Below are positions 4,692-52,700 of a stretch of 64,000 nt of DNA, one piece after another. A model generated the notes under the pieces. That model had not been told where the DNA came from. It did no database searches and saw only the letters and a list, made by a program, of their open reading frames with translations. The translations under genes were made by a program, and so were the position numbers. This stretch comes from Tubiluchus corallicola (taxonomy: Eukaryota; Animalia; Priapulida), in NCBI GenBank assembly GCA_030141605.1, contig JAQGDQ010000090.1, positions 310,001 through 374,000 on the forward strand. The letters are read 5' to 3'. The number at the start of each line of letters is the position of its first letter. The first letter of the stretch is position 1.

Positions 4692-4743
4692 ATGTCTGGA
4701 ATATTCTTCATAACTGGAGTTATGATCCTCAGTAATTTTGCAG
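4692..4743 (+). CDS. Dscam: Putative first coding exon, signal peptide MSGIFFITGVMILSNFA
   Basis: ATG plus 17 mostly hydrophobic codons ending GCA G|gtgcgt (phase 1). Joins in frame to the acceptor at 19091 to give ...NFAEITVSSDASHMGPSF. Implies a 14.3-kb first intron. Confidence 0.7.
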
Positions 4744-25700: not shown

Positions 25701-28700
25701 GAAAAATGTCAGTTTCTGTTCTTATTTGTTAATCATATTTTAGGTCCTCCGTATATTCGACCATTCAAAAACTTGACAATCGCTGTTGGGAAGAACGCAA
25801 CGATCAAGTGTCATGTTAGCGGTTATCCGATTGCTTCCGTTTGGTGGAAAAAAGGTAAACAAAGATGTTTTTTTGAGAACCATTTTATGTGTTGCATATT
25901 TTTAAACATTTACATTTCTTGAATTTGTATCAGTTTATCATGTAAACATTTCATGAGCATTAGTCTCAGCTGATGATATATTCAATTTCTGTTGTGCATA
26001 TTTTGTGTGATGTTTATTCTTTAGTTTACCAAATTCTGACGTCTTTTTAGGAAATCGAAGACTTCCGGCTAAGCCTCATCAGCAGGTGATAGATGGTGGC
26101 AGGACTCTAGTGATTGACAATGCGCAGAAAAATCGTGACAATGGCGAGTATACATGTTTTGCTAGAAGTCCATCTGGAGATACAACTCAGAGGAGCATCA
26201 ACGTTGATGTCAAAGGTACCATTTAAGATCCTGTTGTTCATTAATTTTGACAATGTTGACTTTGATTTATGAGATACAAAAGGAATGCCAGATTCATTTA
26301 TCTGTTCACCTTGATTTTTGATTAAACCAGGTTTTTGAAATGTAATTTTACATATACATGATTTTTTAGTGTTGACACTCATGGAAAGTGCTCCATGTGT
26401 CATTCATTGCTAGATTATAAATTATAACGTTATCATTTTTTATAACATTTACTGAACTGTCTTTGAAGTGAAATTATAGAATTCGGGTATTTTAATCACA
26501 TATATTTGGATGAAAGGCCTTGGTATCATATGGCTGACTTTGAAACCAGCAAATGTTTTGCTGTGTAGGGTGGGTGGAGTGCATCTAGCCTTCTTTTACT
26601 GTTCCTAATTCTGTTATAAACAATCAAACCAAATCACCATCAAAGTACCATATGTCCAGTGTTTTAAGTGAAGTTTTTAGCTATTACTAGTCTCCAAATT
26701 TTGAAATAATCAGTAGAGTTTAAATGAAAATGCAAAAATATATTTCATTTCTGAAGCATAGTGATGCCTGTTGATCGATGCCATTCAGAAAGTTTACACT
26801 TTCCATCACTTTCTTCCTTAAACATAAAAATACATTATAAATTTAATTTTAACAAATTGTCTAATAATGTTAAATAGTTGTATCAGAAACTACTGTGTAC
26901 TAATTTTTGTATGTAATAATCTTTTTATTAGCATAGTTTTTATGTGTTTAAATGACTATAGAATAAATAATTTTTCTTCATGCATACCATACGTACTATT
27001 TCAACAAGTTCCCGGGTTTTGTTTTCAATGGAATATCTTCCATTGCAGTGCCACCCTCACTTAGCGCATTTCAGTTCCCCCGTTTGGTACTGGGAAAACG
27101 TGCTGGTGCTGTATGTATCGTGGATAGCGGAGACCCACCAATATATTTTCGGTGAGCCCTAAACTACTGGTCTCCCTGTGTTTTTTTGTACTGATATTGT
27201 GGTAAATTTCTTTCAGTTGCGCCATCCTTAGGGGACTTCATGTTTCCTAAAATTAAGGCAGGACAACGGGCTGCTGCAGTTTGCTTTGTTAATGAGGGTG
27301 ACCCACCTATAAACTTTCGGTGAGAACTCGCACATTGTTGTACTAATTTGTCACATTTTGCTTTGCAGTTCCACCCTCTATCGGCCGGTTTGAATTTGAA
27401 AAAATGAGAGTAGGTGCAAGAGCTGCTGCGGTGTGCTTTGTCAATTATGGTGATCCACCAATCATATTTCGGTGAGAATGTGACCTTAAAGTATTAACCT
27501 GAAATGTTTCATTTCAGTGCCACCATCTTTGGGACAGTTTAGTTTTGAAAGGATGCGTGTGGGTGACAGAGCAGCTGCAGTGTGCTTTGTGAACAGAGGT
27601 GACCCGCCCCTTTGGTTTCGGTGAGAAATATTGATATATTTGTTTTGCTGATTAATGGCATTTACTCATTTTAGCATCCCCGTCGGTCGGCCCTTTCGAG
27701 TTCCCTCAGATGCCGATCGGAAGCAGAGTTGCAGCCGTATGTTTCGTTGACAAGGGTGACCCACCGATTACATTTCGGTGAGAATTTCTCTTCTGCCCAC
27801 TTCTTAATTTGAGTTGTCAAGAATGCCTGATCTGAAGTGGTTTGTGCAGTTGCTTGGTGTAGTGGTTGCAAGTATTGTGTATGATCCCCCATTTCATGTG
27901 GTGCTTGTGCTTGGCTTTATAAAGAATTTTTTTATCTTATTTAGGAGAAGTAGCAGTGACGTTCTGTTTCATGCTGCCTTTAATGCAGTCTGTTTCGGAG
28001 CAGACAGACAATGTGTCATATCAAATGCTTTTGGATGATTTACACATTCATTTCTTTCAGTTCCGCCATCTATTGTACCATTTGAGTTTCCAAAGCTCGG
28101 ATTTGGAGAAAGGGCTGGAGCGGTGTGTTTAGTGAATCTTGGCGATCCGCCCATTACCTTTGGGTGAGGATTATTTTGAAAACTGATAGCTTATGTTTTT
28201 CAGTGCCACCAAAACTGAGGCCATTTTACTTTGATCGACTGAATGTTGGAGAAAGAGGCGGTGCTGTTTGTATTGTGAGCTTGGGTGACCCACCTATCAC
28301 TTTCCGGTGAGGATTTTAGCACTACGCAATGCTATTCTTCTGTGTGCGTGTGTGTGTGTGCGTGCGTGCGCTTGTTTGTGTATGTGTATATACACGTATA
28401 TGCACTTCCAGTTTTTCCAGTTTTTCCTTTTCTTGGTAATTAAAGTACACGAGGAATTTATTTTTTAGGTATCGAAAATTTACAACTGATGGAAACGTGC
28501 TTGCATGCGTCCATTCCTTGTTTTCTAGCATTGTTCGACACTTGTCATTAAATTGTATTGTCTTGTCTGCATTTTCAGTTGTCCCAGCTTTGCGTCCTTT
28601 TGCTTTCACAAGAGTTCAGGTTGGATCCAGGTCAGGAGTTGTTTGTATTGTAGAATTGGGCGATCCACCGATAAAGTTCCGGTGAGAAACTGTTAGCTGA

Positions 28701-31700
28701 ACAGAGCTGCTACTTTTAGTATTTAGTTAGCACGTGTGAATTGTGTACATGTTATGTGTCAGAACTGTGTGGCTCAGGAGCAGATTAATTCCGGAATGAG
28801 TACCTGCGGAGAACAGATCACCTATCTTTATTGCTAATTAATCTGCATTATTACTTTTTCATCATTTTCCAGGATTGAAGTTCGAGGATTTTACACATTT
28901 TGTTTGTAAAGCTCATTAATGCAGTGTGCTTTTAATTACAGAGGCACCAATGCTGACACTGTCATTCAGCTTTCCACGAGTGAGGTTACACAAACGAGCT
29001 GCTGCAGTTTGCCTTGTAACTGGTGGTGATCCGCCTATAACATTTCGGTGAGAAACTCTGCTAGGTGATTTAGACTAACAGTAAAACATGCTTTTCAGCG
29101 ATTCCCATTCTGCATCCATTTGAATTTCCGAAATTGATTCTTGGCGCCAGAGCTGGTGTTGTGTGTATTGTCGTGTTTGGCGATCCGCCCATAAAATTTC
29201 GGTGAGTTGGTTTAATATCGAAACCATGAATGTGATTTGATGTGAAGTGGATGTTTTTTGAATGTGTAATATTTGCCCAGTGTATTTGCAGCATTTCAGT
29301 ACTAATCTTTGCAGTTCACTTTTTTTCAGCAGTTACTCTTTTCATTGGTACTTTTGCTACAGTTTGTGTGATACCATTTTCAGAACCGCTGATGCTAACA
29401 CCCTTCTCATTTCCTCGAGTGAGGTTACACAAGCGAGCAGCCGCGGTCTGTCTAGTGACTGGCGGAGATCCGCCCATAACGTTCTGTGTAGGACAATAAC
29501 ATATTTTACAGAATGTGACAGTGTGTGCTGTAATTTTTCAGCTGCACCCAGAATAGTTCCATTTGACTTGCCAAGAACAGCAGCGGGCGATAGAGGTGGC
29601 ACTGTGTGCATTGTGAACAGTGGTGACCCACCAATTACATTTCGGTGAGAATGCTCTAACTAACTAACATTGATTTTGGAGTGTTTGTTGGAGTGCTTCC
29701 TTTTCTTGAGCGCTTATTTACGCATTTGCACTTTCTTTTTGTTTCTAGTTGGACTTTCAACAGTTTCATTTAAAAAGCTCATCAAAAACAACTAGATGTT
29801 TTTAGCAGGAATAACATCGAAAGTTGCTTATGGTAAGCCTTCTGTCCTTGTTCTGTAATGGACCCTGACAGCTTAGGCTACTATCATTATAAATTTCAAA
29901 TGTTTTACTTCAGCACCACCAGGACTGCTGCCGTTTGAGTTTCAAAGAGTTAATGCCGGAGACAGAGTTGGCACAGTGTGCATTGTTTTCAGTGGAGATC
30001 CTCCAATATCATTTCGGTGAGGAGTTGCTCAGAATTTCTGTTTTACCATTTTGCAGCTTCTCCGTTGATTGATACCTTTGCATTTTCAAGACGTAAGATT
30101 GGAGAGAGAGCATTTGTGGTATGCGGAGTGACAAATGGTGATCCGCCCATAACATTTCGGTGAGAGTTTGGTTTTAAACTCTTGTTTTGCATTTTTACAG
30201 CTTCTCCGGTGATTGATTCATTTGAGTTTTCGCAACTTAAAGTTGGGGAGAGAGCATTTGTTGTGTGTGGGGTGAAGAATGGTGACCCGCCAATAGCATT
30301 TCGGTGAGAACCTACTTTCTCAGTATTAATACCATTGATGAATCTTTTCAGCTCCGCCCACAATTGATGAATTTAGTTTTACACGGCGAACAATTGGTGA
30401 GCGAGCAGGCGTTGTGTGTATAGTGACAAGTGGTGACCCTCCTATCAGCTTTCGGTAGGCTTGCTATTATTGTGTTCTGTTGTGTTTGTGGAAAGTAGTG
30501 TTTCCATTCCTTGAACAGCCCTCTTTCATCTCCTTTTAGGTTCTTGGAAGTACAGCAGTAATTTGTACTTGATGGAGAACTGGAGTATCTGCAAAAGTTT
30601 CTTTACAATTTTATTTATTAGTAGAGACAGTACTCACTGACATGTTTTAATTCCAGTGCCTCCGGTTCTGGATAGCTTTGAATTCCCTCAAAGGACTCTT
30701 GGCGAAAGGGCATTTGTCGTTTGTGGTGTAGCCAAAGGTGATTCCCCAATAACATTTCGGTGAGCTGCGATATTATTGTAGCATTCCTAGGTGGGCTGCA
30801 TTGATGTATGTTTGTTAGTGCAGGTAACTTTTCTTTACTTTCAGTTCCCCCGTCTTTGGATCCGTTTGATTTTGCACAAAAAGTTGTCGGTGATAGGGCA
30901 GCCGTCGTTTGCTATGTAAACAGGGGTGACCCACCGATTCAGTTTCGGTGAGCACTGTTTTCCCATCTAACTTCTTTCTTGTGCCACCAAAACAGTGTGC
31001 ATTTTTTTCAGAACCACCGGTAGTAGACAAGTTTGTGTTTCCAAGAAGACGAGTGGGCAGCCGTGCTTTTGTTGTGTGTGGTGTAGAAAAGGGTGACCCG
31101 CCGATACAATTTCGGTGAGCTCCAGTTTAATGTTAGAGCTGGTGTGACTGTGATGATGCCTCTCCTTACTTTTTTCTAGTCCCGCCTGTACTGGAACCAT
31201 TTGACTTTCTCAGGAGGACTGTCGGTGACAGAGCTGCAGTCGTCTGTTTTGTGAACAAGGGAGATCAACCGATAACATTTCGGTGAGCTCCATACGATGA
31301 ACTCTTTTTCATGCAATTTGACATTTTTATTCATAGAGTCACCCACGTTGGACGCATTTCAATTTCCAAGGCGAAAAATTGGCCAACGTGCATTCGTAGT
31401 GTGTGGAGTGGCGAGTGGTGACCCTCCGATATCATTTCGGTGAGACATTTATGGTCAGTTTTGCCACATGCACTAACCATTGGTTTCTTACAGCAGGTGA
31501 CACATCTTGCGAGAAATTGCAAGCTGTACGAAATATTTAAATGAATAATGCTTATTTTACAGCCCCTCCTGTTTTGGACTCATTTGAGTTTGCAAGGAAA
31601 CGGATTGGTTCTAGAGCAGCAGCGGTGTGTTATGTAGACATTGGTGATCCACCTATTAAATTTCGGTGAGGCATTATGAACTATGTGAACATTAATTACC

Positions 31701-34700
31701 TTAAGCAGAATCTCTGTTGTAATTTTTCAGTGGCACCAAATTTGGCACCATTTCAGTTTCTACGTGTGAAGGTTGGCAAAAGATCTTTTACCGTGTGTGG
31801 TGTGGACAGCGGTGATCCACCTATTCATTTTCGGTGAGGACAAAAAAGTTTAAAGAGCATATCTGCATTAATAACATTATTCTGTTTACAGCTCCTCCTT
31901 TGGTCGACCCATTTCAATTTCTTAGGCGTCGCATTGGAGAAAGAGCTGCTACGGTTTGCTTTGTCAGTAACGGAGACCCGCCAATTACATTTCGGTGAGA
32001 CTTACTGCTTGCTATAAGCAATATTTGGGTGAAAACTGGAACTATTTTCCTTTCAGAGCCTCCAAATCTAAACCCATTTGATTTTCCGAGACTCAAGATC
32101 GGGAAAAGGGCATTCGCTGTGTGCGGAGTTGACAGCGGTGATCCCCCGATAGCATTTCGGTGAGAGTTGATTTGATATTTGAACAGAATCTAAATTCAAA
32201 TAATTATTTCTTGTTTGTTTCAGTTGCAATATTGAATGCGTGTTCTCTTTTTTGGCTTGCAGTAGAAAGTGTCAAAACTGTTGACAGCTTTGGAGTGTTT
32301 TATGTGTGTACTACCTTTCCTGTTTTGTGAATGTCATTAAAATAATTATGGCTTGTGTTTTAGATGTGGTGTCGACAGAAGCTGTCTGGCTAAGTGAATA
32401 CCTTTACATTTTCTGTCCTCAAACACCCATGTCAGTATCAAGTACTGATTAATGGTAGTATTTGCACTTTGTTACAGTTGCTCCCGTGTTAGAACCATTT
32501 AGCTTTCCAAGATCTGATGTCGGGTCTAGAGCTTTTGCTGTCTGTGGAGTTGACAGAGGTGATCCGCCATTAGTGTTTAGGTAATTTTTTTGCTCTGAAA
32601 TCATGTTTTTTCACTCTGCATCATTTCAGTTCCTCCTGCTCTTGGATCATTTTCATTTCTAAAGTTGAAGATTGGAGAAAGGGCCTTCACCGTGTGTGGA
32701 GTTACCAAGGGGGACCCACCAATATCTTTTCGGTGAGATTAATTGATCTGTGTCATTAACTAATGTTTTCATTTCAGATCTGAGAACTCGAGTTTATTTT
32801 TTGCCGGTTGGTGGATTTTACATCATGTGGAGTGCTGAGCGTTTGCACCCCCCACTCCCCATTTCTGCTTATTATTTTGAATTAAGTGACGAATAAAATT
32901 ATTTCAGCTGCTCCATCCTTAAGCCCATTCGAATTTCCTAAGCTGAAGGTTCATCAGAGAGCATTTACTGTATGTGGAGTGCTGAGTGGTGATCCACCCA
33001 TTTCTTTTCGGTGAGCTTTTTTGCAAGAAATGCTAATAGGCTTTATAGCTTAGTCATGTCTCACGATGCGTTGTGCGTTTCAGAAACACCATTCATTCGC
33101 CCATTCGAATTTGGAAAGCTGAAAGTGCATCAGAGAGCATTTGCCACGTGTGGAGTAATAAGCGATGATCCTCCTGTTTCTTTTCGGTGAGCGGCTTTGC
33201 GAGCTGTATTTCAGTTAGCCATATTAACATTCTTCATTATTTCAGAATCACCCTCCCTTCGCCCCTTTGAGTTTGGAAAATTGAAAATTCACCAGAGGGC
33301 ATTTGCAGTATGTGGTGTGTTGAGTGGTGATCCGCCGATAATCTTTCGGTGAGCCTTTTAGTGCTTTCTTAGTCTTTTGTTATTGATTTAAATTTGTTTA
33401 TTTCAGAAACTCCTGTTCTTCGACCATTTGAATTCGGAAGTTTGACAGTTTATGAAAGAGCCTTTGCCGTCTGTGGAGTTTTACGTGGAGACCCACCGAT
33501 CACATTTCGGTGGGTGTCTTGTTCATTTGTCTAATTCGTTCTTTGCATTTCAGCACCACCTTCCTTGTTGCCCTTTGAACTGCCTAGAATTAGAGCTGGT
33601 CAGAGGACATTTGCTGTTTGTGGTGTCCATGATGGGGATCCACCAATAACTTTTCGGTGAGGTCCTTAATGTGACATAGCAAAATTAACAAAGGTGTTCA
33701 TTTCAGACTCTCCGTTGTTGGTGCCGTTTTCATTTCCAAAGGTGGAGAGCGGCCGGCGAGCTTTCGCTGTTTGCGGTGTTGAAAGAGGGGATCCACCGAT
33801 AAGCTTTCGGTGAGATCCGGCTTGATTTATCGATTTTTGTCTTCTTTCAGTGCCATCCGTCCTCTGCCCTTTTTTGTGTGCTAGTGTGTGTGTGTGTGTG
33901 CAGATTAGTGTGAATGAAGAGTTTGTTTAATTTGTTGTGCCTAATTTATCAAACTAGTTAAGTTTAGCAACAGTGAATTGACATTCTTATCTGAGCATGG
34001 ATATGTAGCTGCTAATGTCAATTTAATTTATTGTAAAAAATCTTTTCACTAAGACTAACAAACAATCATGCTATTGTCATTTCATGTTGTTAAACTTCAC
34101 TGCTTATTGATTTGTGGATTTTGCATTGATGAATTTGTGTAAATGTTTATTTTCTTGGCTATGTAACCCAGAAAACACTAATTTTTAGTAGCGATTTGTC
34201 TTATGAAACGGAAGAAACAATATTAATTTTGCTCCGTTTGTCATTAATGAATGTCAATTTGATTTCCAAGAGTGGAAGTCTATTTTAATTAGCCAGTATT
34301 GTAATTAATACCATAATAGTAAAACTGGATCCTTAGTATTTTCTGGGTACTATAAAATGTGCAAGCAGCTGTCATTATAAATTCATTATTTCCTTTATTA
34401 AATGTAAACATCTTTGTCGATACTTACACAGTTCTACGAAACTGTAACAAAAATATCAGTTTTTCTATATGCTCTCATTTGTGAACTTCCTTGCTGAAGT
34501 TGAGTTTATAATGAAATCTGTCTGTTTTTTAGAGTGTTTGTAAGCGTTATGCACATCTGAATTTTAACTATTGGTAAGCGTTATGCAACTGACTTTAAGC
34601 ACAAAACCAGATTTAATGCTAACATTCACAAATGAGGTGAACAGTTGGTTATTTAGGTGTGTTTCTGTGCTTGCTTTCATTTGTTGTTCGGGGATGCATG

Positions 34701-37700
34701 TGTAGTATGCCCAAAATTCGCTCCAGGTCAGTATTTTATTCCACCGAGTAGTGTACTGTGTACTTGTTTACCAGGCAAATTTCGTTTAGAATTTCTTATG
34801 ATGAAGCCACATTTTTCACCTCAGCCAACTACACCTGCATTGCCGAGAACCTTGCTGCCACTGCCAGTTGCACTTTGGTTGGGACTGGCTGATGTTGGCG
34901 GGGCTGTTGTGCATTTCTTCAGCTGGTTGAAAGACGGCCATCCTGTTTCGCCAAGTCTTGGTGTTTGAATTGTTGTCCCCGTAGAATTTGCCTCTGCACT
35001 TCAAGTGTGAGCTCACACCACAGTGGCATCTACATATGTACCGGCAAAATTTTTGTGATTTTGTGAAAGTTTTGACAAATTTGGCATGGCTCTCAAATTT
35101 CATATCATATTTTGTACCTCTTACCCTTTGTAGGTAGTTCTAATGACAGTAAGTTTAAAGCATTAAGAACGATAACTAATATGGCACATTATATTAAAAA
35201 GTATACTATGTAAAAGGTATGGAATTAAAAGACATTATCTAAAAGGTGTGGCTGTAAAAGTCATATTTGTTCTATCACAGGTAAGCTACGATACATTACT
35301 CCTGAATTAAAAAAGAAGAAATTGCATCCATCTGCACCTCTAGTTGATGCATTCATTGCATTGTGCAGATAAGAATAGTCCTTTTTTCCTAACTAATAAA
35401 AGTGTAACGATCCTATACAAGCCTTACTTATGCTGAAATCACTTTACATATAAATTATGTGGTTGCAGGCAGCAGCTATACATGCATTTCCTAAAAGAAC
35501 AAGAAACATTTGATCCCTTTCTGATTGGTGACAAACTGCTTCCTTTTTGGCAGATGGCTGAAAGATGATTTATCAATAATTGCTAACTTTGGCCCGTACA
35601 TTGTTCCCGACAAGTTCTCGTCAACGTTGGTGATTCCTGTTGTAGAATCACAGCATGCTGGAAACTACACTTGCATTGCTGAAAACCATGTGGGCACTGC
35701 TGCCTATGGAACTGTCCTCGAAGTTGATGGTAAGCAAACAGCAAAACCGTAATGTCACCACAGGATGGCTGTTTTCAAATGGCTTTCGCTTCGTTTATTT
35801 ATTGTAAACTTATTTCTTAAGCTGGTTCAAAGACCACCATGAGTTAAGTGTGACTGTGGGAAGGGAAATTATGGAGAATCGTGTTGCTTCAGCTTTAACC
35901 ATAATGTCAGTGAAATCCATGGACAGTGGAAACTACACCTGCGCAGCTAAAAATGAAGTTGGTCAAGCTTCGTATTCGGCTTCGTTAATTGTAGATGGTG
36001 AGAAACTTTTTGCTTTCATTATGTGGAGGTGGAAACTGTCATTAACTTGGCCTTCTTAGGTACAACAGGATGGCTGATTTCAATCAAATAGCTGGTTGCC
36101 TTTTGTAATTGCTTATTCGAACATTTTAAGCTGGCTTAAGAATGGTAGAGAACTAACCGTCACTCCTGGAAGGCAAATCATGGAAAATCTTGTTGCATCA
36201 ACTTTGACTATAATGTCTGTGAACTCGCTTGACACAGGCAATTACACTTGCCAAGCTGAAAATGAAGTTGGTCAGACATCTTACTCTGCAGCGCTGATTG
36301 TTAATGGTGAGGTTTACTAATTTTTTGCTGTTTTACAAATAGCTAAGGAATGTTTGTGAGTTTGTGGCCCTGATTGGGCATACCTTGGCAAAACAGGATG
36401 GACGTCAGGATCTGGTAAAAACTCAAGTTATTAAATAAACACAATTTCTTGTTTGTAAGATGGTTGAAAGATGGTAAGCCTCTTCCTAAACGTGTTGCTG
36501 GTGAAGTGATGGAAGGAAGGTTCGCTTCAACTCTAGTTATACCAAGAGTGAATGCTTCCCACAGTGGTAACTATGCTTCAGAATTTGGCAGGCTCTGCGA
36601 GCTATTCTGCAAAGCTTATTATCGACAGTAAGTAAAGCTGTATACTTGCGTTTGTTAGCACAGGTTCTAGGAGCAGAAATGTAAATTTTGGCAAAGAATT
36701 ACCATTCTTTGAACACCTGCCATTTTTAAGTCTTATAACAGAGGTAGTCACTGTTGTCATTTTGACCATATGCCAATCTAGCACCTGGAATATGTAATGC
36801 AGGAACCATGAGGCGATTTTTAGAAGTGCCAATAAATTATTAAGAATCTCAAAGTCAAGGTAAGTTTAATGGCATTTAGAATCCGTTCACGCAGAATAGA
36901 CTTGGTCACAGGATGGCATCTTATTTTGTAAAATCGTTAAGTCATAAATGCAAATTTCACGTAGTTGGCTCAAAGACGGAATGGCTATTCCCAAAAATCT
37001 GAAGGTGAAGGAATTTTTCGGAGATGGAGTGGCTTCGACGCTGGTCATTCAGAATGTCAATGCTAACCACGCTGGGCACTACATGTGCATTGCTGAGAAT
37101 AATGTAGCAGCTGCAATGTTCATGGCTGAACTGATAGTAGACGGTAAGCTTGCTTTTGTTAAAAAACTTCCTTACATGTTAATGAGTGAGAAAACACCAA
37201 GAGTGGCAACAGGAGGCCACTTTGGCATCTTCCTTGAAGAAATGTTTGGAGTTGTGCTAAGTATTTTTGTTATTATTATTATTATTTAGTTGGCTGAAGG
37301 ATGAAAAAGTCATTCCTACGAATTTACAAGTAGAACACTATATGAATGGCGGTGTCGCATCTGCACTTGTTGTACAGAGTGTGAAAGTTATCCACACTGG
37401 AAATTACACCTGTGTTGCCGAAAATGCAGTTGGAACCATGAAATATACTGCAAGCCTCGTAGTTGATGGTAAATATTTCAAAATGGAATGAAAATTTGGC
37501 AAATAGGATGGTCGCATTCGTATTCTAATACAAGCAGTAGGGTCTGTAAAGTCTTTTGTATCTGGTGTTTTAGTTGGTTAAAAGATGGTAGTACCATAAA
37601 TGACAGTCTGAAGGTGGAGCGTTACGTGGAGAGTGGAGTAGCGTCCACACTTGTAATACGGAGAGTAAAGGCCAGTCACTCCGGAAATTACACTTGCATT

Positions 37701-40700: not shown

Positions 40701-43700
40701 ATAATTGCTTGTGGCTTCTTGAAAGGGCGAGTATCGAAAAGGTAAGTGACATATGTTGAGATTAGTTACAATTGCAAATGTTAGTCAAGTACACCTCTGT
40801 CACAGTGGACATGGACTGTGTGTGAGCTGATATTTGGATCTTCTTTGCCTTTTGTATATGGCGTCTTGAAATCACTCGCTGACAAAGATTCATTCAGATA
40901 TGTGTGCATTTCTTAATATTCCTGAGAAAAATTTTCGGTAATTTTCGTAGTTGGTTTAAGAACTCAATCGAAGTACAGACAAGCAGAGATATTGAAGTCT
41001 ACAAGGACGGGGGATTTGCATCTACACTCGTGATACCTGTTGTTGCAGTACGACATACTGGCAATTATACTTGTGTAGCTGAGAATGATGTATCTCACAC
41101 CAATTACACTGCAACACTTACAGTTGATGGTAAGCTATGTAAAATTTACCATTTATCATGGCCTCCCTCTTCTGCCATGTAATGTTGAATAGTTTTGCAA
41201 AATATGAGAAACAAAACAAAATGCCAGTGGGTGTTAGTTTTTGCTACGTTGATTGTCGATTATTTATGATACAGTACTTCTAGCTTCCAATCATTGTTTA
41301 AGGTAAGCTGTGTGAGCACACACTCAGAAAGCTGCTTTAACTTTTATGGTCACATCATGTTTGCCTTCATTGGGCTCGCAGTCTTTCAGCCATCTTTCGA
41401 AGAACTTCAAAAGCCTTATTAAATGCATTCAGGTTTTAAAGTACGTTCTTGTAATAGTTGGAAAAAGGACGGTGCAACACTTCTGACCGAAAACATTGAT
41501 GGTGTTTACATTGATGACCTGCGGGAATTCGCTTCGACACTAGTAATACCCAAAGTTAAACGAGTGCATGCTGGAAATTACAGCTGCATTGCCAAGAATC
41601 CAGCTGGACATGCCTCTTTTGTTTCTCAGCTAGCAGTGGATGGTAAGAATCTTTAATTCAGCACCAGGACTTGCAGAATACAAAAGCAGGATGGCCCTTT
41701 GAAAAATTTCACATTTGACGACGTTGTATTTCGCCAATGTTGTATTGTAGATGGTTAAAGGATGGCATGGAGTTGAGACCAAATTCAGATCTGGAGATTT
41801 CTCCTACACGTTATGCATCCACGCTTATTATTGCTAGCGTTAGACCTCTTCATGCTGGCAATTACACTTGCATAGCTCGAAATTCTGCCTTTGCAACTAG
41901 TTTCACGTCCACACTAATCGTCGATGGTAAGTTGTTCTTAGGCTCATGTGTAGTTGCCACTGTGTGGTGGATGGTCGAAACTTTCCTTTCCAGCTTTAAC
42001 ATTTGCTTCCTACCATAACTCATGCTGTTGTTACTAGTTGGTTCAAAGATGAAATGCATTTGACAAATGTGCAGTCACACTAATCGTTGATGGTAAGTTG
42101 TTCTTAGGCTCATGTGTAGTTGCCACTGTGTGGTGGATGGTCGAAACTTTCCTTTCCAGCTTTAAGATTTGCTTCCTACCATAACTCATGCTGTTGTTAC
42201 TAGTTGGTTCAAAGATGAAATGCATTTGACAAAAGTGCAGTCACACGTTGAAATAACTTCAACAAGGTTTGCTTCGATGTTAGTCATTCCTCGAGTGACG
42301 GCCAACGACAGTGCAATCTATACGTGTGTAGCATCCAACTCTGCATCCAATGCTTCGTTTTCCAGTCACCTTGCTGTTGACGGTACGTGTTTGATGATTA
42401 TGTCGATCATGTCGATTATGTCGATCATGTTATCGCTCGATTAGAAAACCAGATGCAAATTTTCTTTGTTGTTTGGTTTGTTTCAATGCTTGCAAGCGGC
42501 CAGTGTGTCCGTGGTGTCCAGTGCTTATTTGCAAAGACTAATTTTGTTAGCACTTAATTAATTACTGAGTTCGAGCTGTCATAATATTTCTGGAGAGGTT
42601 ATTTACTTGGATATGGCGATGCTGGTTACTACACGGATTTCTATATTTTCCAGTTTGCTTTAAGATGTCCACTAGGGGTGAGCATTCTCTAACGGAAAGT
42701 GAATTCGAATCTAATCGAATTCGAATCGAGATAAAAAGATTTTCGAACAAGTTTTTGAACCACCTGTAAAAATTTGTCTTACAAAGATCATGCATATTAC
42801 TCGATTATGTTCTACAGTACAACCACCAATAACTTGTTTAAAAACTGTGCACAGAGATCACAGCTAAATAATGCTAACTCCATGATGTTGCTATCGTTTT
42901 AATGATAAAGAACGTATGTGATTGAAGTGCTGAATTATTCGAATCTGTAGTTTTAGGTTCAAACTAAAAAACTTTCAAATCGAATTCGTACGTTCAATGC
43001 TCACCCCTAACGTTCACGTAGTTATGTAATGAGTTTGTCACAGTAGTCTGTTGTCTGTCATGAACAGATAAACTAGATTCCTTGCACACGTCATAAAAAG
43101 AGCTTTTCCTTGGCTTAGACTTATCAACATCATTCTGTACTTTTTTGTAAACATTCTGTAAGCATTTTCCACTATATAAGCAAGCAGTAAAATTTTCAGA
43201 GCCTTGTGCTTAGTTGAAGTGACGTCTTTTGGTCTTTTAATATCATTTGATACCACTATGTGTGGTGTGAGCTCTGCACTTCGCACAGTCCTTCCACTCT
43301 GTCATCTTCTCATACTGAGAAACTTTCCAAATTTTCATTATTGTTACTAGTTGGTTAAAAGATGGATCTGAAATCAGTTCCGATTCAGGCGTGCTGCTGC
43401 TTGTTCCGAATAAAGCAGCTTCGATGATAGTCATTGAGACTGTAAAACCAGATCACCATGGCAACTACACATGCATTGCTGAAAATGATGTGGCAATGAC
43501 TAGTTATACTAGTCAGCTTTTTGTTAATGGTATGTATAAATGGCAGAAAATTCAGCTGCTCCAGTGGTATATTTCTTGCATTGTACTGAGAAAACATATT
43601 GAATTTCAGTTGGTTAAAAGAACGTAAATTCATTGCTCCTAACTTGCGTGTAGAAGTTGTAAAACATAAAGCCGCATCTATGCTTGTTATTGGTTCTGTT

Positions 43701-46700
43701 ACTTCAAGCCACAGTGGAACGTACACTTGCCTTGCCTCTAATGCAGCAGGTCATGCCAGTCTGTCTGCTGAGTTAGTGGTGGATGGTATGTATTCATCAT
43801 CAACCTGCACCACATGTTTTCTTTATCATGTTTCTGCCATATTTCACCCAGCTGAATCATATTTTTGTGATTTTTGGCAACTAGTCTCAATAGTTTGATT
43901 TTTACCATGCAGTTGGACTAAAGATGGCAGATCGGTACCATCTCACTTGGGTGTGGAAATGTTTACTCCAAGTGAAGTTGCGTCAATGATCGTCATCAAG
44001 TCGGTTAGCGCCAATCATTCCGGTTCTTACTCTTGCACGGCTGAAAATGCAGCTGGTAAAATAAGCTTTAGTGCTGCCCTTATTGTGAATGGTAAGTTAC
44101 ATTCTTTGTTAACATTCAAACTAAATCCCTCCAGCAAGGTTTTCGTCTTTCATGCAGGTATATCAAAACATGTAGGTCCATAATCAACCTTGCCGTTAAG
44201 ATGATTTAATTTGTAAGAGTAGTGCAACTCAAGAATCAGTTGTTAAGTAACAGCTCTAGCCCAAGACTTGGTGAAATAATTCGTGGCATCTAGCTGATTG
44301 GTGAAGTACCAGAAGTTGTTGTTTTACCATCGTTTTGCTGTAACAAGTCTATTACGTAGGTGGCTGAAAGATAGGCAACATATTCCACTTAACTTGAATG
44401 TAGAGATTCACAACTCCAGCGTTGTAGCTTCTATGATAGTTATACAAAGCGTTTCGTCTTTTCATGCTGGGAATTATACATGCATTGCAGAGAATTCTGC
44501 TTCTCATACAGAATATACATCACAACTTCTAGTTGATGGTAAGCAGCATTATGCTGTCATTTGCAAGACATTTGTTATTACCTTTTTATTGATATTTGAT
44601 TATCAAACACCTTTGCCCGATTGCTTTAAGTTTGACTGCAATAATGAGGATTCAGATAGCATGTGTATCATTTATTTTCATCAAAAATGGAAAAGGTGAG
44701 TCGTTTATTTTTTTCATTTTTGTTTGCAATAAAGAAACAGACATTTGTAAACCTAGTAAAACTAGAGGTAAAGCAAATTTTCTTTTATACCTTGCAAGTC
44801 TAATTTTCCAAGACTTGGCAGACGGATGGTCATTTTTCCTTGAATGCCTTATGGCTGTTATCTATGTGTGTTTGTCTCTTGATAGCTGGCTTAAAGATGG
44901 CAAACCCATCGTTGATGACAAGTCAATCGAAAGTGTAGAAACTGACGTTTCGTCGATGTTGCTAGTACGGCGAGTGCGTCCTTATCATAGCGGCATTTAT
45001 ACATGTGTGGCCAGCAATAATGCCGCAGATACCAACTTTTCTGCTGAACTTGAAGTTGATGGTAAATTGCCTTCAGAAATTAGTCTCGACACTCATTTCA
45101 GCACTTTCTATAATAATAAGTCACATGGTTAGTGAGGTGGGAATGTGCTTGGATGCTGATCTTTTTACTGTGAGCCTTAAGGGCGCTTAGAACTTGATAG
45201 CATTCAGTTTCCTGTGTTTCTTAATTGCTGGAGTTGCCTTGGTAGGTTGATCCGTTAGAGTTATGTTGGCTGTTTCATCAGTTAAGATTGAATTATGTGT
45301 TCACGTTTTTGATTTCATTTGGTGATACAGTAATTTCTTGACTCATTTAGAAATCTTAATTTTTTGACAGTTTAGTTGTCTTTGAGTGTTTTGCAAAGTA
45401 GACAAATTAGTGACATGTATGGATTTTAAAACAAGCTACAATACAGTTTTGAAAGCATCTCTGACTTGAAGATTTGTGCTCCAAGACTTTGCAGGCCATT
45501 GGTAATTCTTTCCATGAATCCGCTCATTCATTTAATTCTACTGAATTTATCTCTCAATACATGGCTGAAGGCTGGAAACCTTCTTACTTCTAACACCTCT
45601 CATCTGCGCATTTTAAATCGTGAAATAAAACACATTTGATTATCCTGAAAAAGGCTCATTCTCCAAGACTTGGCAGACCACTAGCCATCTATCCTAGAAA
45701 CTTTTCACTTCTGTAATTCTCCTGAATTTATCGCCTAATTGCTGGCTGATAAATGGCAAACTTCCCTTCACCAGCATGTCTGTTGAGCGCATGGAAAGTG
45801 ATGTTTCATCTATGCTGCTAGTACGACAAGTGCGTAATTACCATAGTGGAAATTATACGTGCGTAACAAGCAATGGTGCTGCAGACATTTCACTGCTGAA
45901 CTTATAGTTAATAGTAAGTCTAAATTATGGAATGCATTTGTCAGTTGTGAGGGGAGCTTGGTCGTTTTTCATAGTAATATGGTGAGTAGTATATTGTTAT
46001 TTACAAATTGAAAGACAGTCAGCTTTTCACAAGTAGAAGTCAAAAATTGTAAATCAGTTTACTTATAGCCATTTACCTACCTATTTTTTAAACTTGAAAC
46101 GGGCATGCAACCTTGCAAATTATCTGTCTTTCTTTCAACCAGCAAAGCTTGTTGGCTTTGTCTAGTGTCCCTTTAAAAGTTCTGAACTTTTGCAGCTGGT
46201 ACAAAGATAGTCAACATATAGAAGCTGGTGAAGGCATTAAAATGATTGACGATGAATTTTCTTCAACCCTCGTCATTCGTCATATAACTGCTAGTCATTC
46301 CGGCTTTTATACATGTTCTGCCAGTAATCCCGTGTCTGTGTCTACATTTTCTGCAAGACTAGTTGTCGACGGTATGTTTTCACAATGGAAGTTACATGTG
46401 GTTCACACAAACTTTTTTATGTTCATTGTTTCTACATTTCCTTCATGTATCAAATCATCTAAATACTTATTTTAGAGTTAACAAATCAAATATCTTCTGA
46501 ATCGTTACTAAGTGTTTAGCAGAGGTGTGTAACCGTTTTTTCATCAGCTTACCTTCCTGAACAAAAGTGCACTGCAAAGGCCGTCTTTTAACCAGCTGCT
46601 TTTTCTGCATCTAGAACTTTCCGAAAGGTCATTTACATGTAATTATAGTTGGACCAAAAATGGCAAAGGTTTGGATATGATAAATGTTAAGATAATGGAA

Positions 46701-49700
46701 GATGAATTTGCTTCAACGTTAATCATTCGTGTAGTCAATGCGCAACATGGCGGGAATTACACATGCACGGCTGCCAATGCCGTCGCAGCTGTAAACTACA
46801 CAGCACATCTGACTGTATATGGTAATTATATTTTTAATTTCATTCACAAGACTGTCTTTCAACCAGCGAGTTGTAATCATGACAATTTTTCCACGTATAA
46901 TTCATTATCAACCTTTATAACAGTTGGCTCAAGAATGGCAGTCCTATCTCTTTGGAGGCCGTTATTGAATCAGCAACTGGTTTTGCCTCAACTCTTGTCA
47001 TCGCTTCTGTTAGTTCTCAACATAGTGGCAACTACACTTGCATTGCCGAAAATGCCGGTGGTAGTACAAACTACACTGCAAAATTGAAAGTAGATAGTAA
47101 GATTTTCCAAATTTGTATTTTGGAAGTTAGTGCAATGTATTGTGACATGACATTGCTATGAAAAGTGCTCGTCAGTCAGCTGAAGCTTTGCTTTGTTAGT
47201 TATAAACACTAGCAACAACTGCTGCTCCCAGTTTACCACTTGTGATGCAATCTTTCAACCAGTAAGTCAGCTTACCAATTGTGTTAGCAAAATAATTACC
47301 AAATTATTGACCAAACAAATTTAGCTTTTTACTTAAGTGAATACATAACAAAATTTATTAACAGTTGGTTAAAGGATCATACCACTGTTCCCTTGGATGT
47401 CATTGTTGCATCTGCTACACCATTCACTTCTACTCTTGCCATCAGTGCCGTGAGTCTTAAACACAGTGGCAATTACACCTGTTTTGCTGAAAATGCTGGC
47501 GGTAGCACAAACCACACCGCTGAGTTAAAAGTAGACGGTAAGGAATTTTTGTAAATAACTTAACTTGTTTGTTTTTCCTTACTTTTTGAGCTACATTGGA
47601 TTAGTAATGAGAGTGGATGGCTTAGAGGATTAATATCTTTAATAACGAGGTAGGTTCTGGTCCACTTCATCTTTTAAAGGACTGCTGACAGTCCTTGTCC
47701 TTCAATGTCTTTAGTGGGCAATGCCACTGATGCTAGATTATGCTTTGTAGTGTGTGCTGAACTGTATAAAAAATCATCATGGTACAACAACCATCAAAAC
47801 ATCAAGCACTGGGTGATTGCTTCTTTCAGCCAGCAATTTAACTATTTGTTTGTGCGAAAGTTTTTAGTTAGAATTCACCCAAAACACATTTATTAATAGT
47901 TGGTTGAAGGATAGTGCTTCAGTCGCTGCTGATGTGTTTGTCGTTTCGGCTACACCATTTGCTTCAACTCTAGTCATTCCTGCTGTTAGATTTGAACATA
48001 GTGGAAACTATACCTGCACTGCTGAAAATGCTGGTGGGAGTGCAAGTTACACTGCTAAATTGAAAGTAGATGGTAAGACTTTGCTGTTAGAATTGTAAAC
48101 CGACTTTTTATCATCTAGTACTGATTTGTACAGCCAGGTGCTTGTAATTCCCATGCAGCATCCACTGGAAATATTTATAAATGGCCAGAAGAACAGCCAT
48201 TACTAGAATTCAAATGTAAGGGCAAAGAAACAGCATTTTAGTAGTAAAATGATCAGACCTTGTTGCTAAGCCAGGTATGACAGAATTTCTTACAGTAGTG
48301 GTCCCTTCTCCAAATGCCTTTCAACCACTGAAGAAAAATTTGAAAAGTAACCATGTTAATCATAAATGCCACAGCCAAATTTTAATGTCATAGCTGGCTA
48401 AAGAATAATGGTGCCATTGATGCAGATGCCGTCATTGATCAATTGTCCTCAGGCTTTGCTTCAACACTTGTCATCAAAAGTGTTAGTTCTCTTCATGGTG
48501 GCACTTACAGTTGTATTGCAGAAAATTCTGCCGGTAGTGCGACTTATGGCACTGAGCTGAAAGTTGATGGTAAGTTGCTACACAGGTAACTTCAAGTGGG
48601 GTGGAAAACAGTTTGGTGCCGTCAACTGAGTCATTATCTCACGTAGAAAGTCTTTCAACCAGCACTGTAATTTACTAGCTAGAAAAGAAAGTATAAATTT
48701 AAAATGTTACGTAGTTGGTGGAGAAATAAAGGCGGCATTCCTGCAGATGCTGTTGTTGATACGTCAGCTACGGGTTTTGCATCAATGCTTGTCATCAAGA
48801 TTGCTAGCTTTCATCATAGTGGCAGTTATACTTGTATTGCTGAAAATTCTGCTGGTAGTGCGAGCTATACAGCTGAGCTGCAAGTTGATGGTAAGTTGGA
48901 GTTGCTCCTGTACTCATGAGTAGTAGGGTATTCAAGGAAAGGTGATTTATGTTGGCTCTCGTCTCCTTAACTCAGAAAGTCTTTCAACCAGCACCGTGTA
49001 ACTTAGGTTATCTAAAATACTACTAGAGAACACAAAGCATCAACATTTTTCATAGTTGGCTGAGGAACAATAATACAATTCCTGTGGATGCTGTCGTGGA
49101 AACTTCTGGCACAGGATTTGCATCAACCCTTGTTATCACAACTGTCGATTTTCGACATAGTGGCAATTATACCTGTATTGCTGAGAATGCTGGTGGTAGC
49201 ACATACTACATTGCTGAGCTCTTAGTAGATGGTAAGATATCTTTGCAATTTGAAGGGGCAGTTGAATTAAGGCAGTGGTTTGTCTATGTAGACCTCTCTC
49301 TTCTGTTGTACTTTCAGCTGGATTTTTGTTGGATTTACAGTCAGTGTTGTTAGTATTCAGCAATTTAGTTAGTATCTGAAATATCTTTTCCCAGAAGAAA
49401 ATTGGTTTGCTTTTCTAGGTTATTAAGGCTACCATCTTACCTTTTTTTGCTGCTTTGTTTTGTGTTTCTGGCAGTGGCAGATAGACCCAAAATGCCTTTT
49501 TCCTTGTCTTTTGCAACTGTTCTGTGGAATACTTAACTTTTAGGTGGTTAAAAAATGGCATTCGCGTTGTCTCAAATTCCAATATTAGAGTGTATCTGCA
49601 AGATGATTTTGCATCGACATTTGTCATAAGAGAAGTTCAGCAAAACAACAGTGGCAATTACACATGTATTGCGCAGAACTTAGCTGGAGCTACAGATTAC

Positions 49701-52700
49701 AGTGCATCTTTAATTGTGGATGGTAATTATACACTAACTATTACCATAGTCATACTGTTTATGTAGGTATGTCGTATTAGTTCTCTGCCGTCTTTTCCAG
49801 CTGAAAAAATGACCAGCTTGTACATGTAGTAGTTTAGCCTCACTGTTTAGTTGATAGATATTGTTCTCACTCGCTTAGCTGGCTAAAAGATGAAAATATT
49901 GTTCCATCCAACTTGGAGATTAGAATCTACAGTGAGGATGAGTTTGCTTCTATGTTGGTTATAAGGAAAGTTGGTGCTCAGCACTCGGGCAACTATTCTT
50001 GCATCGCAGAGAATGCAGTTGGAGAAGCAAACTATGTTGCACATCTAATTGTAGATGGTATGTTTGGTTATCTCAGTTTTGCAGTTTTTGTTTATTGCCG
50101 AGATGATCGCATGGGTAAACACATTTCTATTAGCTTGCATTCAATGTTATGTAAGTATGTATCTTTTTACTGGGCATTCTTTTTCCCAGCTGAAGAAATG
50201 GTTGTTTAGTAACTCGCACTCCTGTATTGATGAACGTTCTTGTTCATAGTTGGCTCAAGGGCTACCATAACATCCCCGCAAACCTGGATATTAGAATCAA
50301 CAACGATGAAGGGGTGGCCTCTATGTTGGTTATAAGGAAGGTTAGTGAACAGCACTCGGGCAACTATACATGTATTGCAGAGAATGCAGTTGGAGATGCC
50401 AGCTATGTTGCACAGTTAGTTGTAGATGGTACGTTTGACAACTTGTAAATATTCCGTTTGCCATTTAGGATGGTCACCTTTCTGTCAGCTGAATGTGACA
50501 AATTGTTGCCACGGTGACAGTGATTTATTGTTACATACCGAATGTTCTAACAGTATTCTCAGACACTTTGTTTATAACAAATTAGTTGGACATGGGACGG
50601 CAAATCTCTCGCCAAGGATGTTCATGTTGATGTATCTCCCATAGGGCTTGCATCCACTATCATCATTCCCTATGTAACTTCGCATCATTCTGGGCACTAC
50701 ACATGTATTGCTGAAAATGCAGTGGCAACTGCCACATATACTGCTGTCCTAAAAATTGACGGTAAGACTTTCTATCCCATACAGCTGGATAAAAGATGGC
50801 TTACTGGTTTTCCCCAGCAATTTGATTGAAGTTTCTCCCACCGAATTTGCCTCAACATTGATTATAAAGAGGGTGAATTCTGGCCACAGTGGAAATTATA
50901 CCTGCGAAGCTATTAATGCAGTAGCAGTGGCAAGATTTACAGCAGAACTCATTGTGGATGGTAAGCCTGGTGGTTTAACAACACTGCCATATTGTCGGGA
51001 CACATTTGAACACCAAGACTTCAAAATAAAAATTGCCTGTAAAAGCTAAAAGATGGATAACATTAAAAAACATATTATAGTTGGTTAAAAGATGGAACTG
51101 AGGTTCCTCATGGAGTTGAGCCAGAAATGTCACCCAGTGGCTTTGCGTCGATGCTTATTATACGCACAGTGTCTTCATATCATACTGGCATCTACACGTG
51201 CATAGCCCAGAATCAAGCTGGTAGTGCCAGCTATTCAGCTAGTCTCATTGTTGATGGTACGAGTTACATTTTGTCATTTTTTTGTCTGAATTAGTTGGCT
51301 TGCTAATAACGTGCGAGTAGTGCCGAGTGTTGTTGTTCAAATTGTACCGAGCGAATTCGCATCAACGCTTGTTATACGAAGTGTTGAATCTCATCACAGT
51401 GGTAATTACACTTGCGTTGCTGGTAACTCTGCGGGCTTTGCTATGTTTACTGCAGATTTAATGGTTGATGGTAAGACAGGTTCAAATACGCATGTTGGTT
51501 TTCTAGGCTGTTTTCTACTACGTTAGTTAGGTAATGAAAGTGGTTAATTAACGTAAACTATTGTGTCATTTAAATGCTTTTCTCATTGAAATTTATCTGA
51601 TTTGTTTTTCTTGATGAATTTAAAGGTAGTAACTTAAATGGCAAAGTGAAATTTTCGCATTCTTATTTTCGTGATATCCGTACACTTGTTTATGACATAT
51701 TTTTGAGAGATTATTTAATTCTTTCAGTTCCTCCATCTTGGATTACTGAACCAGAAAATACGTCGGTTGTTCTCGGGTCGGCAACGTACATTGATTGTGA
51801 AGCTGATGGCATGCCCAAACCAACCATCATCTGGCAAAAAGAATCGAGCGAATGTAATTAAAATGAAATTTTTATACTGTGAGAACTAAAGTTGTCATAC
51901 TAATAGTGGCTATTCTGTTTTAATACCAAAAATACTTGATATTTTGTTTGTTGTATGTTGAGATACTTTAAAAGTAAATTTGTAATACACTTTCAGTTAA
52001 AATTTCGTTAAAACTACCTTTCTGCATATGGATTTGATAAGTGGTTCAATAAATACTAATGTTATAGCAAGCATTAATTGGCTGCATGGCTTTACTGCTT
52101 ATTATTAAACGATTTTGCCAGTTTTGATGTTGTAAAATTTATAGAAAGTAGTTGTAATACCAAGTATTTTGAAACCAAAGTTGAGTCAAAATTTTAAAAA
52201 TAGCAAAAAAATAATTGCTAATTTTCAACAGAATAATTGGTGATTGTTTTAAAGTTCACTTTTTGATTTTACAATTAGTATCTTATAGCATCGGCATCAG
52301 ATTTACCTTTTTTTAGATGAGGATTACTTTGTTGACCTGGACCCAGATCACACGCATGTGTTTGAAAATGGAACACTTTTTATCGGCCAAATATCTGAAG
52401 AAGATGTTGGAAAATACATGTGCGAAGTATCGAATGGCGTTTCACCAGACATAAGCAAGCTTATTGGCATAACTGTGCATGGTACGATTCTTTTATAATG
52501 TATAATATATTATATATATATATATATTTATATATATAAAAACAGTGGTTGTGATGAAAAAAGTAACGCCTCTGTTCATGTGACTGATAAATTCATGCTT
52601 TCTGCAGTTCCGGCAAAGCTAGAAGATGGCGAGACAGAAGTTACAGTTGGAGTGGGGGAGAGCGCGACGTTAGAATGCTCCGCAAAAGGCGATGCACCTC

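Follow-up and report, generated by a model that had tools for sequence, protein, structure and literature searches.

A 64,000-nucleotide stretch of contig JAQGDQ010000090.1 (the window) carries a Dscam gene whose seventh immunoglobulin domain, Ig7, is probably assembled from two tandem exon arrays by splicing one exon from each, in a host that is likely not an arthropod, with up to 1,216 predicted Ig7 variants that likely serve as self-recognition labels. Exons of the upstream array (A) encode the beginning of the domain and exons of the downstream array (B) encode the rest of it. An earlier note on this DNA had placed 33 A exons and 38 intact B exons between single-copy exons for Ig6 and Ig8, and the coordinates were confirmed exactly. 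More cautiously, we also lean toward a fuller account of the same gene as an independently evolved, non-arthropod hypervariable Dscam in which Ig7 acquired a new intron, both halves were multiplied, a dead B copy became a docking site, and paired half-faces would provide more than 1,000 self-binding surfaces.

Two arrays of Ig7 half-exons in one Dscam gene

The window holds a single Dscam gene, on the forward strand. Its gene model is open from position 4692 to position 63421 with AG/GT at each junction; the last (cytoplasmic) exon is truncated by the end of the window, and the position of its acceptor is not fixed in the model. The predicted domains run Ig1-Ig9, FN1-FN4, Ig10, FN5-FN6, a transmembrane segment (TM), and a cytoplasmic tail, that is, 10 Ig plus 6 fibronectin type III (FNIII) domains with TM, which is the order typical of the Dscam family (nine Ig, four FNIII, Ig10, two FNIII, one TM, cytoplasmic tail). 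Of nine exons scanned, seven matched Ig or FNIII families of Pfam (I-set, fn3), with no match for an A exon and one cytoplasmic exon, and FN6 matched the Dscam-specific family FN3_DSCAM-DSCAML_C (E = 2.5e-26). The ectodomain is 29-39% identical to 35 Dscam proteins, and the gene is a canonical full-length Dscam. The first coding exon is followed by a 14.3-kb intron.

Both arrays sit between the exons Ig6C and Ig8N, with all A exons upstream of all B exons. The A exons are 103 nt long (A9 is 106 nt) and all 33 have an AG acceptor; an in-phase GT donor is present in 32 of them, and 29 of the 33 donors read GTGAG. The B exons are 173-185 nt long, all 2 mod 3 and all bounded by AG...GT, and every one opens with N-TGG (the C-strand Trp) and holds a Y-x-C motif. 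In total, 70 of 71 full-length copies keep their frame and both splice sites. Within each array the encoded proteins are all distinct, with mutual identities of 36-82% for A (mean, 55%) and 31-73% for B (mean, 45%), and because the Ig core residues are invariant in spite of this divergence, the arrays are evidently not a product of chance. The A profile had human DSCAM Ig7 as its top PDB match (6ZR7, E = 1.4e-8, without gaps), followed by 7Y6O (scorpion-type) and fly Ig7 (4WVR), and the best domain for the B profile within fly Dscam Ig1-8 (3DMK) was the seventh, at residues 654-711. By homology, the arrayed domain is Ig7.

The earlier note had argued from the exon phases (1 to 2, then 2 to 1) that one A plus one B would restore a full domain, and the gene model bears this out: all 1,216 joins between the 32 intact A exons and the 38 B exons are open, and all are distinct, at 93-98 amino acids. 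Its figure of about 1,200 Ig7 variants stands as 32 x 38 = 1,216, a predicted potential from DNA and not a count of transcripts. No A exon alone (0/32), B exon alone (0/38), pair of A exons with B6 (0/496), or pair of B exons with A1 (0/703) gave an open frame, a stop falling before the end of Ig8 in each case, and neither did any of 5,000 sampled combinations of two A with two B exons or the one join of all exons in series. Skipping both arrays keeps the frame by joining Ig6 to Ig8. The frame is preserved solely by one A plus one B, or by neither. The junction itself tolerates any pair, as the terminal CG of 30 intact A exons, out of 32, makes the split codon Arg whatever B exon comes next; over the 1,216 pairs the junction residue is R in 1,148, G in 38, and S in 30, and a stop in none. 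Nonsense-mediated decay would remove wrong-frame products. As a separate matter, an isoform lacking Ig7 is possible, in which 26216-51727 would be skipped in frame.

The only other duplicated exons found by tblastn with all non-array exons within the window are those for the C-terminal part of FN2 and for TM, each present as a pair, and the total of 4,864 isoforms proposed earlier (32 x 38 x 2 x 2) holds as a ceiling. No second copy of any Ig1-Ig6 exon was found in the window by the same search, and hence no hidden Ig2 or Ig3 arrays. The FN2 pair would be a variable FNIII domain, of which we had seen none described for Dscam; the TM pair resembles fly exons 17.1/17.2.

Spacing suggests a further constraint on splicing. 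The shortest constitutive intron is 99 nt, whereas 21 of the 32 A-A introns are 40-65 nt, and the exons of the FN2 and TM pairs are separated by 33 and 56 nt, also below that minimum. Neighboring A exons would mostly be too close to be joined, and other double inclusions would be eliminated because they shift the frame. It is barely credible that the copies are instead used in series, as a string of domains, or as 5' promoter cassettes in the chelicerate style. The Ig7-homologue arrays of chelicerate sDscams do look internal until transcripts are read (PMC4835542), but in the window gene serial inclusion runs into stops, the placement of all A before all B leaves no cassette with a whole domain, the 21 short A-A introns are too small for a promoter and a leader exon, and intact in-frame exons for Ig1-Ig6 lie upstream.

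A second haplotype provided an independent view of the arrays. Contigs of a public run (X1) run through the introns and differ from the window by approximately 1-2%, and X1 is therefore DNA of another haplotype. X1 depth was present in 29/30 bins of 25700-45690 and 20/30 bins of 45600-52600; stretches without X1 cover, e.g., 35705-37038 and 45600-46301, prove nothing. As the first comparison displayed 40 of 118 differences, the counts below use 31 differences from three pieces with near-complete lists (21/22, 4/5, and 6/6) and all 34 from the second comparison. Across both arrays, 16 differences fell in 2,791 exon bases and 49 in 3,510 intron bases (p = 0.0015); for the B array the counts were 5 in 1,119 exon bases and 29 in 1,814 intron bases (p = 0.004). 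The exonic differences comprise 10 synonymous changes, 6 replacements, and no stops, and none of 13 listed indels is exonic (3 more were not displayed). Constraint on the exons in the second haplotype is supported by their carrying fewer changes than the introns, and the X1 contigs showed no sign of DNA rearrangement. Two observations pull the other way: the contrast for the A array alone is not significant (11 differences in 1,672 exon bases versus 20 in 1,696 intron bases, p = 0.15), and one X1 contig, of depth 4, skips 101 nt (44430-44532) within B22. The skip is either an unverified deletion allele in another individual or an artefact.

These data bear on a rival reading that we regard as very improbable, namely that most of the copies are dead duplicates or artefacts of assembly and that one A and one B exon do all the work. 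Five broken B pieces and one broken A exon, together with a 166-nt, 98% identical duplication that could be an assembly error, are what such a reading has to offer, against 70 of 71 copies that keep frame and both splice sites at 31-82% protein identity and an X1 haplotype that covers most bins with differences avoiding the exons. The duplication (41910-42246) is itself either a recent unequal crossover or an assembly error, and it fuses the start of B18 to the end of B17, producing a 56-nt stop-bearing micro-exon with both splice sites.

A predicted docking site and selectors for the B array

Choice among the B exons is predicted to involve a docking site and selectors, with the dock derived from a dead B exon. 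Two motifs are common to the introns before B exons, and their reverse complement is 34921-34965. This segment ranks first of 155 windows in the A33-B1 intron, with a mean duplex energy of -33.0 kcal/mol versus -17.0 kcal/mol for the median window, and in 25 of the 38 B introns the true sequence pairs with it more strongly than any of its 100 dinucleotide shuffles does (27/38 at p <= 0.05). Since the dock had been picked after the motifs were seen, the whole window was scanned; the dock was the top 48-nt window of the entire 64 kb, 22 of the 38 B introns containing a strict 9-mer complement to it, and the runner-up windows, which reached 12 and 9 introns, are B-type exon starts sharing the first half of the dock. 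Among 33 complementary stretches in the 64 kb, 26 lie within the B span, which makes up a quarter of the window; 25 of those 26 precede a B acceptor, intact or broken, by 45-103 nt. Mean pairing with the dock was -33.8 for 36 B introns and -18.5 for 31 introns elsewhere in the gene (p = 2e-9), with B36 and B38 excluded (introns of 23 and 38 nt). The introns of these two exons (50762-50784 and 51257-51294) have no space for a selector.

The predicted selectors span about -15 to -48 kcal/mol in strength. Those of the 5' B exons mostly pair with the 3' part of the dock, and those of B24-B31 and B33 mostly with its 5' part. The dock outcompetes the selector's own exon start in 35/36 cases and the best of all other exon starts in only 21/36. 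Acceptors of the B exons are weak (TAG in 28/38; pyrimidine fraction, 0.59), those of the A exons read CAG in 30/33 (pyrimidines, 0.67), and that of the dead exon is strong (CAG; pyrimidines, 0.71). In the proposed mechanism, one selector at a time would pair with the dock and loop out the B exons upstream of it; the pairing would cover the strong acceptor of the dead exon and activate the weak acceptor just downstream, as in exon 6 of fly Dscam1. The fly exon 6 cluster has its docking site upstream and a selector before each variant (PMC12962786), an arrangement that the predicted elements of the window gene match in layout.

Several results tell against this prediction or fail to extend it. 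Eleven of the 38 B introns (B1, 12, 13, 14, 19, 20, 32, 34, 36, 37, and 38) do not reach p <= 0.05 against shuffles, and the dock was chosen with knowledge of the motifs. X1 alleles showed no compensatory change, pairing being slightly weaker in two of four selector regions and unchanged in the other two, and our searches found no second species that could supply such support. For the A array, no docking site was found in the window, with k-mer scans reaching at most 11/33. The local fold around the B dock is no better than that of shuffles (z = 0.60), and Rfam returned no matches. A dock downstream of the B array was rejected, as candidates there reached at most 7/38 introns, which is background; likewise rejected was a G-rich candidate dock for the A array at 26552-26585, whose pairing of -22.07 compared with -21.82 for synonymous shuffles, 29 of 100 being as good.

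Other features of the region may interact with such a system. The start of a broken B copy (36429-36480) and that of B8 (38141-38190) share the first half of the dock and could pair with the downstream selector class as competing or balancing sites. The dead exon (34923-35007) has, besides its acceptor, a possible donor about 84 nt on; its inclusion would keep phase while carrying a stop, and with the dock unpaired it might serve as a poison exon.

Division of the domain and, by homology, of its self-binding face

Fly Ig7 and its chelicerate homologue dimerize in antiparallel through the ABED face, whose core is made up of strands B and E; the residue preceding the B-strand Cys contacts its twin in the partner (PMC4928987, PMC10154414). 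We assigned strands by alignment to solved Ig7 sequences and from general Ig topology. By homology, an A exon would contribute strands A and B and a B exon strands C to G, so that the binding face would be divided between the two exons. A Val stands just before the B-strand Cys in 32 of the 33 A exons. At positions -3/+1 around this Cys, which point outward, the 33 A exons carry residues paired by size, F/G (15 exons), G/I-or-L (8), or A/F-Y-or-L (10), a pattern that resembles three knob-and-hole classes, given a two-fold antiparallel contact centered on this site in which -3 would face the partner's +1. The F/G state requires 9 changes on the exon tree (8-10 in bootstraps), which is poorly resolved. 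This reading of the pattern is weakened by its having only two independent pairs on supported branches (sign test, p = 0.5), and the pattern could reflect packing within the domain instead. A predicted complex of two A halves and two B halves scored 0.33, against a mark of 0.34, and is counted on neither side.

Exon 9 of fly Dscam1 spans all of Ig7, the homologous human exons lie at nearly the same place (PMC1397879), and arthropod Ig7 exons measure 243-312 nt (PMC3364881). A protein search with the B alignment gave 268 matches; among the top 120, the open reading frame (ORF) also includes the B-strand Cys in 94 cases and has a starting Met upstream of the Trp in 25, with 1 unclassed. None of these best 120 of 268 begins at the Trp, i.e., none displays the split, at the level of ORFs only. 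From the fly and human exons, and with no Trp start among these matches, the split appears to be derived. We propose that an intron was gained inside an ancestral one-exon Ig7 and that each half was then multiplied by unequal crossing-over.

Of this shared face, strands A and B would come from the A exon and strands E and D from the B exon, and good binding would then require a matching A-B pair. Such matched-pair binding would give neurites (or blood cells) a self label, and by analogy with known Dscams self-avoidance of neurites is the most likely role; an immune role is a conceivable alternative. As both halves of one recognition domain vary separately, the self-binding logic would be modular and addressable as a 32 x 38 matrix.

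The size of the usable repertoire depends on how freely the two choices combine. We expect them to be largely independent, as nothing ties a given A to a given B exon and the junction codon is neutral. The same gene could also splice one A to one B with choices that are coupled or strongly biased, yielding tens to a few hundred pairs, and this we consider unlikely. The wide range of selector strengths would fit such bias, our scans could have overlooked an RNA element that couples the choice of A with that of B, and halves of different subfamilies might not fold together. On the other hand, the arrays are fully separated, unequal in number (32 versus 38), and served by one common dock; the junction codon accepts any pair, the core residues are invariant in both arrays, and in fly the strength of pairing does not predict usage (PMC12962786).

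Lineage of the gene and comparison with known systems

The gene likely falls outside both the arthropod and the lophotrochozoan Dscams, in a host that would be a non-arthropod protostome, probably an ecdysozoan. By BLAST it is closest to sequences from a ribbon worm at 39.3% identity, then an annelid at 39.2% and a brachiopod at 38.5%, with the best arthropods at 36.9-37.5%. A FastTree of 36 rows joined the gene to arthropods at 0.958. For a 24-row tree, 12 rows that were partial, had doubled domains, or were very long or redundant were removed (Chrysodeixis, P0304, Neodiprion, Diaphorina, two Logan rows, Penaeus, Lottia, two Strigamia, Mercenaria, and Saccostrea); it includes 10 arthropod Dscams from four subphyla and 11 lophotrochozoan rows and is rooted on two starfish. 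Under LG+G4, arthropods without the gene were grouped at 99.9 and arthropods with the gene at 96, and a mixture model minus the Ig7 columns gave 99 and 96 (Shimodaira-Hasegawa-like approximate likelihood ratio test [SH-aLRT], short search). The approximately unbiased (AU) test rejected a clade of the gene with four pancrustacean Dscam1 sequences (p = 0.0008) and, weakly, a clade with the 11 lophotrochozoans (p = 0.027). Finally, the distance from the first Pro of Ig7 to the B-strand Cys is 21 residues in the window gene, in 15/16 lophotrochozoan-clade rows, and in 1/2 starfish, but 22-24 residues in 17/17 arthropod rows, so that the window gene is without this insertion of 1-3 residues.

The placement has weak points. 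In the 36-row tree, which includes a very long insect paralogue, the group of arthropods excluding the gene received only 0.32; the gene's end branch is the second-longest in the tree; and the sampling is without a non-arthropod ecdysozoan, sea spider, arrow worm, or gnathiferan, with chordates also absent. A smaller share of our confidence, though not a negligible one, goes to the same architecture in an arthropod host, e.g., a sea spider or small myriapod, with the gene as a deep, fast-changing paralogue. The gene does group with arthropods against lophotrochozoans and echinoderms, its branch is long and support in the 36-row tree is low, and Ig7 exons were multiplied repeatedly in arthropods (PMC4835542, PMC4244043). 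Against this stand the grouping of 10 arthropod Dscams from four subphyla without the gene at 99, the higher identity to ribbon worm, annelid, and brachiopod than to any arthropod, and the missing arthropod Ig7 insertion. We therefore retain the non-arthropod host as our preferred placement.

Searches for relatives with the same gene yielded little. A protein search with the Ig1 exon gave one match among 187 candidates (36%), a representative search with FN6 was crowded by long FNIII repeat proteins, and the ESM Atlas returned generic Ig clusters only. Metagenome scans for the same layout confirmed 0 of 186 and 1 of 119 pattern matches; the one confirmed match (L001) was discarded as a bacterial replication-gene contig.

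Among known systems, pancrustacean Dscam1 (Drosophila exons 4, 6, 9, and 17) is similar in having 10 Ig and 6 FNIII domains plus TM, tandem internal arrays, and two TM exons. Unlike it, the window gene has no Ig2 or Ig3 arrays, Ig3 being one exon; its Ig7 is made from two arrayed exons (103 nt and 173-185 nt), where in fly the whole of Ig7 is encoded by exon 9 (PMC1397879, PMC5465998); the docked array is joined upstream to a partner that varies as well; the predicted dock is a dead copy of an arrayed exon; and there is an additional FN2 pair. With the Dscam1 clade rejected as well, its origin is probably separate from that of pancrustacean Dscam1, and the earlier proposal of an independent hypervariable Dscam is supported as far as DNA evidence reaches. 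Chelicerate sDscam alpha and beta resemble the window gene in placing diversity in the Ig7 homologue, in tens of tandem copies, with an ABED trans dimer (PMC10154414). The sDscams are without Ig1-6, Ig10, and three of the FNIII domains, and their 5' cassettes are under alternative promoters (PMC4835542), whereas the window gene is full length (Ig1-6, Ig10, and FNIII 3, 4, and 6 present and in frame), its arrays are internal with each copy half a domain, and the spacing of its exons, mostly 40-65 nt within the A array, speaks against leader/promoter cassettes. Canonical genes whose variation is confined to duplicated Ig7 exons are also known from Strigamia and as insect Dscam2; in Strigamia, two to five whole Ig7 exons per gene are mutually exclusive across 40 centipede genes (PMC4244043), compared with 32 x 38 half-domain exons in one gene here. 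The evidence supports a gene that would work like fly Dscam1, by internal arrays and predicted docking choice, yet belongs to neither the Dscam1 lineage nor the sDscams. The earlier comparison, made with arthropods only, was right that the gene differs from both, but our trees suggest that the host is not an arthropod.

The analogy with V-J joining holds in part. In both, one Ig domain is formed from one member of an upstream array and one member of a downstream array; here, however, the choice is predicted to be made in RNA, reversibly and without junctional variation. The V-J cut lies before the G strand, and the window gene is split before the C-strand Trp, with no DNA join before the G strand.

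The suggestion that this layout was undescribed agrees with the open full-text literature, subscription papers and supplements being beyond reach, in which our searches turned up neither a double array for a split Ig7 nor a hypervariable Dscam from any non-arthropod. They returned no open paper pairing Dscam with priapulids or isoform diversity with a sea spider (arrow worms, kinorhynchs, and nematomorphs were not searched singly), and among the listed open papers pairing Dscam with onychophorans, none describes such a gene in its title or the start of its abstract. Extensive Dscam diversity has been called unique to arthropods (PMC5775551), and whether velvet worms and tardigrades have diversified Dscam has been posed as a question (PMC5465998); the available parts of PMC4453065, PMC10084454, and PMC12074976 hold nothing contrary. 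The gene would offer a rare view of the origin of a docking site, from a dead exon copy whose splice acceptor is retained, and a natural test of whether, in any animal with a single such gene, about a thousand labels are required for self-avoidance.

Table 1. Positions of exons, arrays, and predicted elements in the window
Feature	Position	Strand	Basis or remark
First coding exon, signal-peptide-like	4692..4743	+	read from sequence; 17 codons, phase 1, in frame with Ig1
Ig1 exon, single-copy	19092-19418	+	gene model, tblastn
Ig2 exons, single-copy	20674-20820, 22262-22411	+	gene model, tblastn
Ig3 exon, single-copy, 291 nt	22581-22871	+	gene model, tblastn
Ig4 exon, single-copy	23434-23703	+	gene model, tblastn
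Ig5 exon, single-copy	24937-25236	+	gene model, tblastn
Ig6 exons, single-copy	25744-25854, 26051-26215 (Ig6C)	+	gene model, tblastn
A array, 33 exons	27049..33809	+	start of Ig7 (34 codons), including B-strand Cys and GDPP loop; phase 1->2
A1-A11 starts	27049, 27217, 27369, 27518, 27675, 28061, 28204, 28579, 28942, 29099, 29384	+	
A12-A22 starts	29542, 29914, 30057, 30201, 30352, 30657, 30845, 31012, 31180, 31337, 31563	+	
A23-A33 starts	31731, 31892, 32057, 32478, 32630, 32908, 33084, 33246, 33407, 33554, 33707	+	
A11	29384..29486	+	acceptor and open frame, no in-phase donor; probably unusable
B remnant (3' part of exon)	34779..34890	+	tblastn; broken piece
Predicted docking site, 45 nt	34921..34965	+	acceptor and first 14 codons of dead B exon; complementary to B-intron motifs
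Dead B exon with in-frame stop	34923-~35007	+	tblastn to B21, E = 7e-4; broken piece
B array, 38 intact exons	35554..51470	+	remainder of Ig7, from C-strand Trp through G strand; phase 2->1
B1-B13 starts	35554, 35822, 36131, 36965, 37290, 37574, 37861, 38161, 38440, 38731, 39066, 39356, 39642	+	
B14-B26 starts	40220, 40951, 41458, 41751, 42204, 43351, 43610, 43913, 44360, 44886, 46196, 46649, 46924	+	
B27-B38 starts	47365, 47900, 48394, 48715, 49056, 49544, 49879, 50250, 50586, 50785, 51081, 51295	+	
Predicted selectors, one per B intron	35736..51021	+	45-103 nt 5' of acceptor; motif and pairing scans
Selector examples	36064-36074, 38983-38993, 44808-44819, 46854-46867, 48650-48663, 48979-48992, 51009-51021	+	
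Broken B copy (frameshift)	36460..36628	+	tblastn; own selector at 36391-36401; broken piece
Truncated stop-bearing B copy	42038..42093	+	from 166-nt tandem duplication, 98% identical (41910-42246); broken piece
Two decayed B copies	45560..45915	+	from ~45561 and ~45742, without AG acceptors, each with selector-like stretch upstream; counted as one broken piece
Ig8N exon, single-copy	51728-51853	+	downstream of B array
Exons for Ig8, Ig9, FN1-FN4, Ig10, FN5, FN6	51728..61455	+	gene model
FN2 C-part, two alternative 238-nt exons	55532-55769, 55803-56040	+	49% identical
TM, two alternative exons	61828-61986, 62043-62207	+	51% identical
Cytoplasmic exons	62328..64000	+	gene model; last one cut by window end

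Repeats were seen at three places. The B18-B19 intron contains a high-copy repeat (42670-42970), where X1 depth in the corresponding bin is about 1,800; another run, X2, matched solely two short pieces on this repeat and says nothing on expression. Intron 1 holds a minisatellite of 31-nt units in about 19 copies (13077-13640), and upstream of the gene lie microsatellites at 2547-2759, (CCA)19 adjoining (ATC)45.

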